From Escherichia phage vB_EcoM-pEK20, in the sequence record MZ868638.1: DNA of 64,000 bases. The stretch is one strand, 5' to 3'. Every line of letters starts with the position of its first letter. Positions within the stretch are counted from its first letter, which is position 1. Below, in pieces: positions 35,731 through 38,556 of the stretch. The position numbers and the translations under genes were made by a program. The notes below the pieces were generated by a model that was given only the letters and a program-made list of their open reading frames with translations, made no database searches and had not been told where the DNA came from.

Positions 35731-36094
35731 GCCCTGGGCGTATGAATACAAGCGTAAATTAATCCCAAATGAAGTACTATTTGGCCCTATTTTAGCTTTA
35801 GCGTTTTTAATCTTTATGTTTATAGGAGCTGTTTTAGATTCCAATAAAGTTATATCGTCTGATGCAGCGTTTTCATTAATGTTCGTCGCACCACTTATTG
35901 TACCGTTTTTATTAATGCCTATTAATTGGGCAGGATATTGGCACCAAGGCCGTCATCACAGAGCCCGATTAAGAGAATGGAAAGTTCAGTGCGCAAAAGC
36001 CCAAGCTCAGTATGATGAAGCTGTTAAAAAGTATGAATATGAAGAAGCTATGGAATTCGTTAAGGAAATAAGATGCAAAAACCTCAACTCTTAA
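35699..36094 (+). CDS. membrane protein with conserved C-terminal tail (EFVKEIRCKN); start uncertain
   Basis: Two hydrophobic helices; C-terminal motif shared with three paralogs; alternative ATG at 35720. Confidence 0.5.
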   Translation: MSKPTLYMPSKPWAYEYKRKLIPNEVLFGPILALAFLIFMFIGAVLDSNKVISSDAAFSLMFVAPLIVPFLLMPINWAGYWHQGRHHRARLREWKVQCAKAQAQYDEAVKKYEYEEAMEFVKEIRCKNLNS

Positions 36095-36315
36095 CCGTAT
36101 GGCCTTCTCTTGGTGAGAACGTTCTAATTTTTATTATGAGTATTGGCATGGGATTTGCCTTTGGATTAGTTGGATTTCTTATTGACGGCGTTGTGTTAGG
36201 ATTTATAGGGAACACTGTTGGATTCACAGACCAATGGCAGGACTTACGGTATACACAAGCCTTTGCATCCATCGCATCATTTTGTACTGTAGTCTATTTT
36301 TACTACGATTTATAA
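36073..36315 (+). pseudogene. membrane protein paralog, apparently frameshifted (conserved C-terminal tail continues in another frame to 36434)
   Basis: 80-aa two-helix ORF ends at 36315; the paralog tail (INHNKKNKKVY...ENFIKECRNE) is encoded in the -1 frame from about 36300, next to a T5 run at 36297-36301. Confidence 0.45.
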
Positions 36316-36338
36316 ACCATAACAAGAAAAATAAAAAG

Positions 36339-36368
36339 GTTTACGCTTCTCAAATGATTAGTTATAAT
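36339..36368 (+). promoter_or_regulatory. early promoter GTTTAC-N18-TATAAT
   Basis: Consensus -35 and -10; lies inside the out-of-frame tail region. Confidence 0.55.
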
Positions 36369-36426
36369 GAACTCCTAGCTAGACGTGAAAATGAAACAAT
36401 CGAAAACTTTATTAAGGAATGTAGAA

Positions 36427-36732
36427 ATGAGTAAGATTATTGAAATTAAAGTACCAGAGTTTAATGATGCCAAATCCGCTTCAGATGCAATTTATAAACT
36501 TCTGAATCAAGCTGAACGTATCGAAGAAGAAGCAACAAAGATCGCAGACCAATATGCCGTATCATTTTCTGTAGGTGATTATGGTAGTGGTCGTACTTAT
36601 TATCCTAAGGGTGAAATCGTATCCCAGTGGATGAAAGATGAAATTGAAAATAATGGTGGCGATGTTAAGCGTGAAGGTAATGGTTACATTATTACTGAAG
36701 GTGCTTGGGTTTCGTCTTCTGCGTTGTGCTAA
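36427..36732 (+). CDS. hypothetical protein, member 1 of a tandem paralog family ending G-W-x-S-S-x-x-C
   Basis: ATG at 36427; C-terminus EGAWVSSSALC. Confidence 0.6.
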   Translation: MSKIIEIKVPEFNDAKSASDAIYKLLNQAERIEEEATKIADQYAVSFSVGDYGSGRTYYPKGEIVSQWMKDEIENNGGDVKREGNGYIITEGAWVSSSALC

Positions 36733-36741
36733 GGAATCATT

Positions 36742-37014
36742 ATGTCTAAAGAACAAACCGAACTGGCTGAAGCCGTAGCAAAAATCTATGCAGCTATTGA
36801 GGCTGCCAAAGAAATTGCTGATAAACAAAACACAACATTCGACTTGTATCCAGCTTATGGTATGGGTGGAACCTATCATTCACCGGGACAACTTAAAGCC
36901 GATCTTGAACGTTGTACAAAAAACGGCTATGCTGAATGGGCTGACGTTTACCAATACGACTACAATCTGAGCCTCGAAACTGGTGGTTGGATTGCGTCTT
37001 CTCACACTTGCTAA
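36742..37014 (+). CDS. hypothetical protein, member 2 of the G-W-x-S-S-x-x-C family
   Basis: C-terminus TGGWIASSHTC. Confidence 0.6.
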   Translation: MSKEQTELAEAVAKIYAAIEAAKEIADKQNTTFDLYPAYGMGGTYHSPGQLKADLERCTKNGYAEWADVYQYDYNLSLETGGWIASSHTC

Positions 37015-37023
37015 GGAAATCAT

Positions 37024-37221
37024 ATGTCTCGTGAATTAGATTGTGCTGTACGTACGGCAGTAGCTGCCCTAGAAAACCTGTTCCAAATTGCAACAGAAGA
37101 ACGCGAAGAAGTTACATTATGGATTGAAGATAACGCAGGTCTGAATCTCCAGAATGCAATCTCGGTATCAAATAATAGTATTACTGTTCAAGGCTGGGTA
37201 TCATCTAGTTATTCTTGCTAA
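37024..37221 (+). CDS. hypothetical protein, member 3 of the G-W-x-S-S-x-x-C family
   Basis: C-terminus VQGWVSSSYSC. Confidence 0.6.
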   Translation: MSRELDCAVRTAVAALENLFQIATEEREEVTLWIEDNAGLNLQNAISVSNNSITVQGWVSSSYSC

Positions 37222-37225
37222 AACA

Positions 37226-37255
37226 GTTTACAACAAGATAGGGCTATGTTATAGT
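37226..37255 (+). promoter_or_regulatory. early promoter with palindrome GATAGGGCTA...TAGTCCTATC
   Basis: GTTTAC-N18-TATAGT with TG extension. Confidence 0.6.
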
Positions 37256-37283
37256 AGTCCTATCAAATTAAACGGAGACCACA

Positions 37284-37523
37284 ATGATTTATTACGAAAG
37301 TGTTGGAACCAAAGTGGTTGGTAAAACCATTACTCGTGAAAAGTTTGCAAAGATATTCGATATGCGTTATAAAAAATCTGAACACAAAGGCATCCGATTC
37401 GAAGATGCACACTGTACAATTTGCCCTTATAATGAAGACATAAATGGTACAATCGTTCCATTAGTAGAGGCTTCACACGATGACCTCTGGGATGAATATA
37501 ATATCGCATGTCGTGAAATTTAA
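37284..37523 (+). CDS. hypothetical small protein (79 aa)
   Basis: ORF after GGAGAC ribosome binding site. Confidence 0.55.
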   Translation: MIYYESVGTKVVGKTITREKFAKIFDMRYKKSEHKGIRFEDAHCTICPYNEDINGTIVPLVEASHDDLWDEYNIACREI

Positions 37524-37547: not shown

Positions 37548-38504
37548 ATGATGTTAGTTATTGGTTCTCGTGCACTTCACTATCATGGTCTTATTGATTC
37601 TAGCGCTATCAAAAATAGCGATTGGGACTTTATTGCGGACCAAGGTTCTTGGAATGCATTCAAAAATCAAATGATGGGTGTATATGTTCACCAAGACAAC
37701 CCTGATGTCCAAGTTTTCAAATGCTTCCATAATGGACGCGAAACTCATTTTGAAGCATATATTGTTCCGGCAATCACTAATGTTCGTGAACTAGTCGGTG
37801 AACTCACTCCTGAAGATTTCACGTCTTCTTATGACCTTTTAAAATACGCCAAGAAAAATTTGACTAAAGATCGTTTGACCGGGTTTTACTGGGCAACTCC
37901 TGAGATATGTCTTGCAATTAAAATGTCTCATCGTTTCAAGAAAAATAATCCATTCTTTTTAAAGACTATGAACCATATTCAGTATCTTCGTGGTAAAGGT
38001 GTTACACTGAACGATGAACTTACTGAAATTATGCTGAAACGCCAGAAAGAAACTTTGAACTATGCTCACCCAGTTCTTGACACTTCTAAAAGTGCGTTCT
38101 TTAAAGATGACATCTATACATATGACCATGATACTATTCACGAAGCCATTGCACTAACAGACCGTCCGGCTTATACGTTTTACATGAAAGACGGTTCTGA
38201 AGTCATGACCTCACGCGAGAAGTTCGAATCGTTACCAGAAATGGTCAAATTGGCCGGCGTATATGAAGAATCATGTGTACTAGCGTTAGAACGTTCTCAG
38301 ATTCCTAATAACTTTGAAATTAACCCTGAAGCCAGTTTCATGATGGCATTAGAAAAAGTCTGCACAAGCATCACCTCCGGTTGGTTCCGTGAGTATGCCT
38401 GGGAGAACTATGGCAAAGTAGTAAGTATGTATCAAAGCTTAGGACACGACGATTACGTCAAGCGTTTCAAACAAAATTTTCATATGGTAAAACCTTTCAA
38501 ATAA
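37548..38504 (+). CDS. hypothetical protein (318 aa) with a possible nucleotidyltransferase-like N-terminal motif
   Basis: N-terminus VIGSRALHYHGLIDSSAIKNSDWDFIA resembles a GS...D-x-D NTase signature; weak. Confidence 0.55.
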   Translation: MMLVIGSRALHYHGLIDSSAIKNSDWDFIADQGSWNAFKNQMMGVYVHQDNPDVQVFKCFHNGRETHFEAYIVPAITNVRELVGELTPEDFTSSYDLLKYAKKNLTKDRLTGFYWATPEICLAIKMSHRFKKNNPFFLKTMNHIQYLRGKGVTLNDELTEIMLKRQKETLNYAHPVLDTSKSAFFKDDIYTYDHDTIHEAIALTDRPAYTFYMKDGSEVMTSREKFESLPEMVKLAGVYEESCVLALERSQIPNNFEINPEASFMMALEKVCTSITSGWFREYAWENYGKVVSMYQSLGHDDYVKRFKQNFHMVKPFK

Positions 38505-38526
38505 CTTCACAAAACTGTTTACAACA

Positions 38527-38556
38527 AGATAGGACTATGTTATAGTAGTCCTATTA
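38527..38556 (+). promoter_or_regulatory. early promoter with palindrome GATAGGACTA...TAGTCCTATT
   Basis: GTTTAC-N18-TATAGT. Confidence 0.6.

Follow-up and report, generated by a model that had tools for sequence, protein, structure and literature searches.

Here we report that three consecutive small open reading frames (ORF1, ORF2 and ORF3) of Escherichia phage vB_EcoM-pEK20 (sequence record MZ868638.1) belong to a conserved phage module, in which one to four genes for small proteins with a common C-terminal tail are combined with one gene for a protein of predicted nucleotidyltransferase fold. The DNA analysed was a stretch of 64,000 nucleotides, called the window below, and the coordinates of its features are collected in Table 1. 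A preliminary description of this DNA had noted three tandem ORFs of 101, 90 and 65 aa ending in EGAWVSSSALC, TGGWIASSHTC and VQGWVSSSYSC, and had suggested that they share only this end, possibly a lipidation, targeting or binding tag, on otherwise divergent bodies. The most informative fact was absent from that description, namely the near-obligatory nucleotidyltransferase-like gene downstream of the tail genes, located at 37548-38504 in the window and hereafter termed the partner. We infer that each small protein engages this putative enzyme by means of its tail.

The tail genes are linked to a downstream partner gene

Viral contigs were retrieved with a degenerate DNA pattern for YGMGGTY, a loop carried by many of the small proteins, which gave 42 loci (41 viral contigs and the window). 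These tail-anchored loci held one to three adjacent tail-ending ORFs on the same strand, many of them without the YG loop and with quite different bodies. We found a gene for a protein of about 300 aa in 31 of the 42 loci, on the same strand and always 3′ of the tail genes. In the other 11, the contig ended less than 1 kb beyond the last tail gene, so that the gene was present in 31 of 31 informative loci. When the neighbouring ORFs were clustered, this protein was the only widely common neighbour; the runner-up cluster occurred in nine loci, all of them T4-like.

The linkage was then read from the opposite side in a reciprocal set of 80 viral loci anchored on the 318-aa partner of the window, with the tail not used. 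Same-strand tail ORFs, one to four in number, were found within 4 kb upstream in 69/80 and downstream in 0/80. Variant tails (W-D-S-S-S-C, W-V-Q-S-S-C and similar) were present in 6/80, and 5/80 were without a tail gene. At four loci with no recognisable tail gene (L110, L111, L115 and L137), a conserved 177-178-aa protein was encoded upstream of the partner instead. The partner homologues were 32-100% identical (median 43%) and came from contigs of 35 to 390 kb, with hosts ranging from Enterobacteria to Myxococcus. Using tblastn, we found the partner in 733 phage records, including phages of Escherichia, Acinetobacter, Aeromonas, Pseudomonas, Vibrio, Klebsiella and Enterobacter and, more distantly, of Gordonia and Streptomyces. 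Of the phages that were spot-checked, Myxococcus phage Mx1 and Pseudomonas phage PHB09 carried the full module, as did Escherichia phage ukendt, which has three tail genes. Only four contigs, all from metagenome-assembled genomes (MAGs), encoded the partner in a set of 185,579 bacterial and archaeal species genomes, indicating that the module is essentially phage-restricted. In Bacillus phage G, an acidic 117-aa protein, gp204 (L158 2106-2459), is encoded directly upstream of the partner homologue gp205 and ends in ...EEETSSSW, with no Cys and with Trp as the last residue; this end is possibly a Gram-positive variant of the tail.

The tail is conserved at the protein level

The coordinates and ends of the three ORFs agreed with the preliminary description. 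A six-frame scan of the window for W-x-x-S-[SG]-x-x-C followed by a stop revealed three matches, which were exactly the ends of ORF1-3, while 0.035 were expected per window from 200 shuffles. The three proteins also matched each other in pairwise BLASTP (E values of 2e-4, 1e-3 and 3e-4). An exhaustive profile search of 1.84 billion cluster representatives (threshold E <= 1e-3; clusters at 50% identity) returned a family of 218 clusters, nearly all of 65-140 aa, in which the profile match extends to the final residue; word-based searches reached close relatives only. Motif and property statistics were drawn from 151 of the 218 clusters. W(-7), S(-4), S/T(-3) and C(0) were retained in 142 of these 151 homologues, G was usual at -8 or -9, and the terminal Cys was the sole Cys in 81 of the 142 motif-keeping members. 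The shared C-terminal module is thus real and strongly selected, it is retained rather than absent in homologues from related phages, and in many unrelated phages it is found again on small proteins of different build.

The preliminary description had named a shared nucleotide element as a possible source of the similarity. A stop-to-start junction that is near-identical after ORF1 and ORF2 could mark a tandem duplication unit, which would fit such an element. We considered together the possibilities that the ends resemble each other by chance or as a translated DNA repeat. Among 171 distinct tail genes, all six Ser codons were used at both serines, from the non-interconvertible TCN and AGY boxes, together with both Cys codons and all three stops. 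This varied usage places selection on the protein level and excludes a shared nucleotide element, and chance is refuted by the motif scan and by the conservation among homologues. The probability of either origin is practically nil.

We found the same tail on differing bodies within a single locus. In several members, extra internal tail-like copies (W-D-S-S-G-C and similar) were also present in acidic linkers, with 9 observed against 0.1 expected from shuffles, and W-x(1-2)-S-S occurred 25 times against 1.3 expected. These internal copies suggest that the motif acts as a portable unit and is more than the last strand of one fold. A shortened form, W-x-S-S-S/G-C, was seen in two or three copies per protein, one of them at the extreme C-terminus, in L160 2413-2631 (phage ukendt), L097 3709-3954, P0148, P0166 and P0138, so that the spacing from S-S to C ranges from 0 to 2 residues among lineages.

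The small proteins form one family with two body types

The profile search and alignments revealed a family of phage-restricted small acidic proteins with an N-terminal helix packed on a small β-sheet, in which A-type members carry a YG(M/S)GG(T)Y loop and B-type members do not. Among the motif-keeping members, 125/142 had a loop of this type, the median isoelectric point was 4.5 and the median length 89 aa. ORF1 and ORF2 both matched phrog_899 (E 3.5e-22 and 1.9e-18), each covering only positions 134-221 of the 221-position profile. Their alignment spanned the N-terminal helix ending ...A-x-x-I-A-D, the Y-G-x-G-x-T-Y loop and the tail. Residues Y52, G53, G55, T57 and Y58 of the ORF1 loop were invariant in one alignment, and at least 90% of 120 family members retained the loop Y, G, G and Y. 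ORF3 matched phrog_4882 (E 1.6e-36), and its family aligned with the 120-member ORF1/2-family profile over the last 13 columns only (hhalign probability 83%, E 9e-6). The claim that the three proteins share only their ends thus holds for ORF3 at the level of detectable sequence similarity, and fails for ORF1 and ORF2, which are full-length homologues. The bodies proved less divergent than had been described: ORF3 and the other tail-only proteins keep the same architecture of an N-terminal helix, ending ...A-x-E-x-G-x-x-F/V, followed by strands and then the tail, and they look like deep paralogues that have lost the loop.

No match above threshold was found when ORF1-3 and ten distant relatives were scanned against Pfam, NCBIfam and PADLOC; in PADLOC there was a single weak match (E 0.01, 12.6 bits). 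The tail-family profile had no meaningful match among PDB sequences, and no structural neighbours of the tail proteins were found. The tail family has no Pfam entry and no known fold.

The tail subclass was found to track the body. An aromatic residue at -2/-1 occurred in 0/63 A-type proteins, which have the YG loop, versus 35/68 B-type proteins, including ORF3 (...SSSYSC), which suggests distinct roles, possibly in a hetero-oligomer. The locus architectures were A, B, AB, AAB (the window), ABB and ABBB. The idea of a binding tag, put forward in the preliminary description, is plausible. In a further reading the tail, with its terminal thiol, serines and Trp, is a site for docking or for binding a cofactor, ligand or metal, and the small proteins act in the pathway of the enzyme, for example by directing it to different targets via their variable bodies or by binding its product, and are neither modified nor inhibitory. 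The common tail on divergent bodies, the several paralogues per enzyme, the two subclasses, the frequently single Cys and the placement of the tail within the AlphaFold2 (AF2) fold all fit an adaptor or binding site of this kind. We nevertheless consider it unlikely, since the sequence reveals no cofactor, metal site or target, no structural neighbours were found, and the variation in tail gene number from one to four means that a fixed hetero-oligomer is not required.

The terminal Cys was also considered as a site of lipidation, as a membrane- or virion-targeting signal or degron, or as the end of a precursor related to ribosomally synthesized and post-translationally modified peptides (RiPPs). 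In epidermin-type lanthipeptides, a Ser/Cys pair forms aminovinyl-cysteine (AviCys), and the S at -3 with the C-terminal Cys formally resembles this pair (S-x-x-C-COOH); membrane proteins, e.3 and e.4, are encoded upstream in the window. Such a fate of the tail is nonetheless very improbable. Each protein ends with the Cys, which a CaaX box would place four residues from the C-terminus, no signal peptide, lipobox or hydrophobic N-terminal signal was found, and a fold is predicted for these acidic proteins, so that the lipidation and targeting functions suggested earlier find no support. The e.3/e.4 neighbours are confined to T4-like phages. Pfam analysis of neighbouring genes revealed no dehydratase, cyclase, LanD-type decarboxylase or radical-SAM gene, the nucleotidyltransferase-like gene being the sole conserved neighbour, and proteins of 65-140 aa with a high-confidence predicted fold are unlike a short unstructured precursor.

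The partner is a predicted nucleotidyltransferase

In Pfam, the partner protein matched two domains only, DUF7277 (97.1 bits) and DUF7275 (263.5 bits), with a gathering cut-off of 27, and it also matched phrog_2141. Both domains were matched by all 20 diverse partner homologues. The signature of the Pol-β nucleotidyltransferases, hG[GS]-x(9-20)-D-h-[DE]-h together with another carboxylate that a later strand supplies, was present: G6, D25 and D27 were invariant, S7 was near-invariant, and E or D was found at position 69 in 15 of 16 sequences. In the helical domain, the residues conserved among homologues of 32-100% identity were K125-x-S-H-R129, K139-T140, R148, R165, D193-H194-D195-x-x-H198, E240-E241, E248-R249-S250 and KVCTSITSGWFRE. 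The best PDB matches of the predicted fold were MenT-type nucleotidyltransferases, namely MenT1 (7.9), TglT/MenT3 (7.2) and MenT4 (6.9), followed by three nucleotidyltransferase-like proteins (6.0-6.5), ANT(2'') (6.1) and LnuA (5.0). By motif and predicted fold, the partner is thus predicted to be a Pol-β-fold nucleotidyltransferase. Pfam scans of the 20 homologues (E <= 10) gave no match to known nucleotidyltransferase family models, including DUF1814/AbiEii, and the partner profile had no meaningful match among PDB sequences. Because no known family model matches, we treat the partner as a nucleotidyltransferase-fold family of its own and not as a member of MenT. The DHD..H cluster also raised the possibility that DUF7275 is an HD-type phosphohydrolase; lenient Pfam scans of the 20 homologues revealed not even a weak HD match, and this assignment remains speculation.

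Pol-β-type enzymes that act on proteins include GlnD, which attaches uridine monophosphate to a Tyr of PII and combines its nucleotidyltransferase domain with a helical His/Asp-rich domain, and CitX (MdcG), which transfers a nucleotide-derived prosthetic group onto a Ser of an acidic carrier of about 100 aa, the citrate-lyase acyl carrier protein (CitD). No similarity to the GlnD/PII and CitX/CitD pairs was detected by sequence or profile, the tail-protein fold is without a known relative, and the DHD..H cluster of DUF7275 represents at most a putative HD domain. The closest known kinds are the nucleotidyltransferase/small-partner pairs MenAT1 and HepT/MntA. In MenAT1 of Mycobacterium tuberculosis, the nucleotidyltransferase toxin MenT1 is accompanied by the small antitoxin MenA1 (PMC10435456). 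The phage partner differs in having no DUF1814 match and in carrying an extra conserved helical domain, DUF7275; the module is essentially phage-restricted and not bacterial and has one to four small upstream proteins that end in W-x-x-S-S-x-x-C and are dissimilar to MenA1. In the HepT/MntA type VII toxin-antitoxin system, a minimal nucleotidyltransferase covalently (oligo)AMPylates a conserved hydroxyl residue near the C-terminus of a small partner encoded by the adjacent gene (PMC7641770, PMC11586414). In contrast, the tail proteins are not HEPN domains, which carry an Rx4-6H motif (no Pfam HEPN match for ORF1-3 and ten distant relatives), the candidate acceptors are Ser and not Tyr, the enzyme is about 300 aa long with a second domain, several partners are encoded per enzyme, and the context is a phage genome.

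An antitoxin-like arrangement is the main rival to the idea that the tail accepts a modification. Here the partner would be a MenT-like RNA or tRNA nucleotidyltransferase, acting for example on host or phage tRNA 3′ ends, and the small acidic proteins would be stoichiometric inhibitors or timers whose tail plugs the active site as a pseudo-substrate. MenT1 is neutralised by a 68-aa protein that is encoded directly upstream and blocks its active sites (PMC10435456), and the order of the phage genes, small gene upstream and enzyme downstream, is invariant. The acidity of the small proteins, the fold match to MenT and the position of the module next to the phage tRNA cluster region are consistent with this arrangement. 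The hairpin element that separates ORF3 from the partner unit could yield an excess of the small proteins, and the occurrence of the partner without tail genes in some phages is expected if its substrate lies elsewhere. We still judge it rather unlikely: up to four different paralogues per enzyme are atypical of antitoxins, the partner does not match Pfam DUF1814/AbiEii, no resemblance of the tail proteins to MenA1 or AbiEi was detected, and bacterial genomes, the home of toxin-antitoxin systems, almost entirely lack the module.

The tail as a candidate acceptor

We tentatively favour the reading that the tail is an acceptor tag, one invariant serine of which may be nucleotidylated by the partner, by analogy with enzymes of this fold that modify proteins. 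The partner would add a nucleotide, either a nucleoside monophosphate or a nucleotide-derived group, to one invariant tail Ser, and a single enzyme would handle, via the same tail, several proteins of different build whose genes precede its own. In the early to middle phase of infection, the modified small proteins would then contribute to host takeover or to counter-defence. Such a tag would account for the shared end on different proteins ahead of one enzyme and for the iteration of the motif. A precedent exists in MntA, which polyadenylylates HepT on a Tyr (PMC7641770, PMC11586414). In its fullest form the proposal is that of an undescribed phage protein-tagging system, in which a dedicated Pol-β-type enzyme covalently nucleotidylates a portable C-terminal W-x-x-S-S-x-x-C acceptor tail, repeatable also within linkers, on several distinct small effectors and so generates proteins that bear a nucleotide; we put this forward as a doubtful possibility.

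Several observations weigh against an acceptor tag. In the AF2 model of ORF1 (predicted local distance difference test score, pLDDT, of 88.5), W94-S97 form a β-strand inside the fold with a pLDDT of about 85, so that the tail is no floppy tag. The closest structural neighbours of the partner, MenT1/3/4, modify tRNA and not proteins (PMC10435456). The partner was found without a recognisable tail gene in the actinophages checked, for example Gordonia phage Aphelion (L156) and a Streptomyces phage (L157). The partner family is therefore wider than the tail family, and the tail proteins cannot be the only substrate on which the enzyme depends. The linkage counts overstate the number of independent events, since related phages contribute many of the loci, and nucleotidylation of a Ser alone leaves the invariant Cys and Trp unexplained.

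The predicted strand also bears on a purely structural explanation, in which the W-S-S-C end is only the fold-closing strand and turn of an old, fast-diverging duplicated domain and adjacency to the enzyme reflects inherited synteny without functional coupling. The helix-then-strand architecture common to all tail proteins fits such common descent, as does the origin of many loci in related T4-like phages. We consider this explanation quite improbable, because adjacency persists across phages that share no other neighbour gene, have genomes of 35-390 kb and infect very different hosts. In addition, the terminal Cys and both Ser are invariant against a variable core (mean column identity across the family 19%), and the motif is duplicated within disordered acidic linkers.

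Organization of the locus in the window

The window represents an RB69-like Mosigvirus, and the region is 97-98% identical to that of vB_EcoM-RPN187, HX01 and similar Mosigvirus phages. In phage SA35RD, the counterparts of ORF1-3 are RB69ORF139c, RB69ORF137c and RB69ORF136c, all labelled hypothetical, and the three genes lie within a variable block with the tRNA/e.3-e.6 genes on one side and e.2/nudE/lysozyme e on the other.

Table 1. Positions of the module genes, tail and loop segments and regulatory-like sites in the window
Feature	Position	Strand	Description
Middle-promoter-like site	36345-36368	+	GCTT-N14-TATAAT (T4 type), 5′ of ORF1; putative, by consensus match
ORF1	36427-36732	+	101 aa from ATG; A-type tail protein, RB69ORF139c orthologue; N-terminal helix, YGSGRTY loop, tail GAWVSSSALC
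ORF1 loop Y-G-S-G-R-T-Y	36580-36600	+	Residues 52-58; alignment
ORF1 tail W-V-S-S-S-A-L-C	36706-36729	+	Motif scan, family profile
ORF2	36742-37014	+	90 aa; A-type, RB69ORF137c orthologue; helix, YGMGGTY loop, tail GGWIASSHTC
ORF2 loop Y-G-M-G-G-T-Y	36856-36876	+	Residues 39-45; alignment
ORF2 tail W-I-A-S-S-H-T-C	36988-37011	+	Motif scan, family profile
ORF3	37024-37221	+	65 aa; B-type, RB69ORF136c orthologue; helix plus strands, YG loop absent, tail QGWVSSSYSC, aromatic at -2
ORF3 tail W-V-S-S-S-Y-S-C	37195-37218	+	Motif scan
38-nt element, first copy	37226-37263	+	GTTTACAACAAGATAGGRCTATGTTATAGTAGTCCTAT; directly 3′ of ORF3; GTTTAC-N17-TATAGT early-promoter-like pair overlapping an inverted repeat
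Interposed ORF	37284-37523	+	79 aa (phrog_3723); between ORF3 and partner, outside the conserved module
Partner gene	37548-38504	+	318 aa; DUF7277 (residues 1-101) plus DUF7275 (residues 120-305)
38-nt element, second copy	38517-38554	+	Directly 3′ of the 318-aa partner gene; one mismatch between copies

ORF1 was preceded by a Shine-Dalgarno sequence, AAGGA, 8 nt 5′ of its ATG. The preliminary description had each stop followed immediately by the next start, and the genes were found to be separated by a spacer of exactly 9 nt from stop to next ATG, GGAATCATT and then GGAAATCAT, which contains a Shine-Dalgarno sequence. The stop-to-start junctions at 36730-36744 and 37012-37026 were near-identical, reading TGCTAAGGAA(A)TCAT(T)ATG. 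Dhakavirus-like loci (L077, L079 and L084) had four tandem tail genes, again with 9-nt spacing. The near-identical junctions and the fixed spacer suggest a tandem duplication unit, translational coupling, or both.

Sites resembling the T4 middle promoter, GCTT-N14-TATAAT, were found nine times in the window against 1.45 expected, and the site orthologous to the one upstream of ORF1 carries a middle promoter annotation in SA35RD. The site orthologous to the first 38-nt element is annotated in the same phage as a rho-independent terminator, and the element may serve the insulation or re-initiation of transcription units. The cluster of the interposed ORF was found in four loci only, all from T4-like lineages, and the ORF carries a C-x-x-C-like segment, CTICP.

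Gene e.3, which encodes a 120-aa predicted membrane protein in SA35RD and corresponds to 36073-36434 of the window, carried two 1-nt deletions in homopolymer runs, one within a run of T near 36309 and the other within a run of A near 36424. Its ORF in the window is therefore cut short at 36315, leaving 80 aa, and another frame (36234-36434) extends into the start of ORF1. Either the gene has genuinely become a pseudogene or the homopolymers were misread in sequencing. RB69ORF139c, the orthologue of ORF1, is annotated in the RB69 reference genome with only 71 aa ending ...SQWYEK, the C-terminal third and the tail having been lost through an apparent frameshift. The laboratory strain may be able to dispense with this gene, or the truncation may be a sequencing error. 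A 'sulfurtransferase' label in a related phage (OP870146.1; L002 1200-1595) was traced to the predicted membrane protein e.4 and not to the tail genes. The names 'tail completion protein' and 'major capsid protein', given to tail genes in other phage records, likewise appear to stem from spurious automated annotation.

Discussion

The window proteins are clear members of phrog_899, phrog_4882, phrog_2141, DUF7277 and DUF7275, all annotated as of unknown function. Neither the common tail nor the linkage of the genes is noted in the databases, where the three families stand as unrelated. Searches with RB69 ORF names, PHROG and DUF identifiers and motif strings found no literature on the tail family or the partner, and the annotations encountered went no further than 'hypothetical' or, in the case of the partner, 'putative nucleotidyltransferase'. 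A comparative paper on jumbo phages describes the RlaP nucleotidyltransferase family and contains nothing on the tail/partner module.

Through the linkage described here, three anonymous small ORFs become a testable two-component system, with an 8-residue motif, candidate acceptor residues and a candidate enzyme. The phages that carry the partner include therapeutic-type phages of E. coli, Klebsiella, Acinetobacter, Aeromonas and Pseudomonas. Should the tail serve a nucleotidyltransferase as an acceptor or docking tag, it would represent a new kind of phage protein modification or regulation together with a portable recognition tag. Tagging by protein nucleotidylation, if true, would be a new post-translational modification system with a short, defined tag, and widespread among the phages that infect Gram-negative bacteria. 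If the small proteins serve instead to hold a MenT-like RNA-tailing enzyme in check, lytic phages would employ the logic of toxin-antitoxin systems. Either reading provides a rationale for the joint annotation of several PHROG and DUF families.

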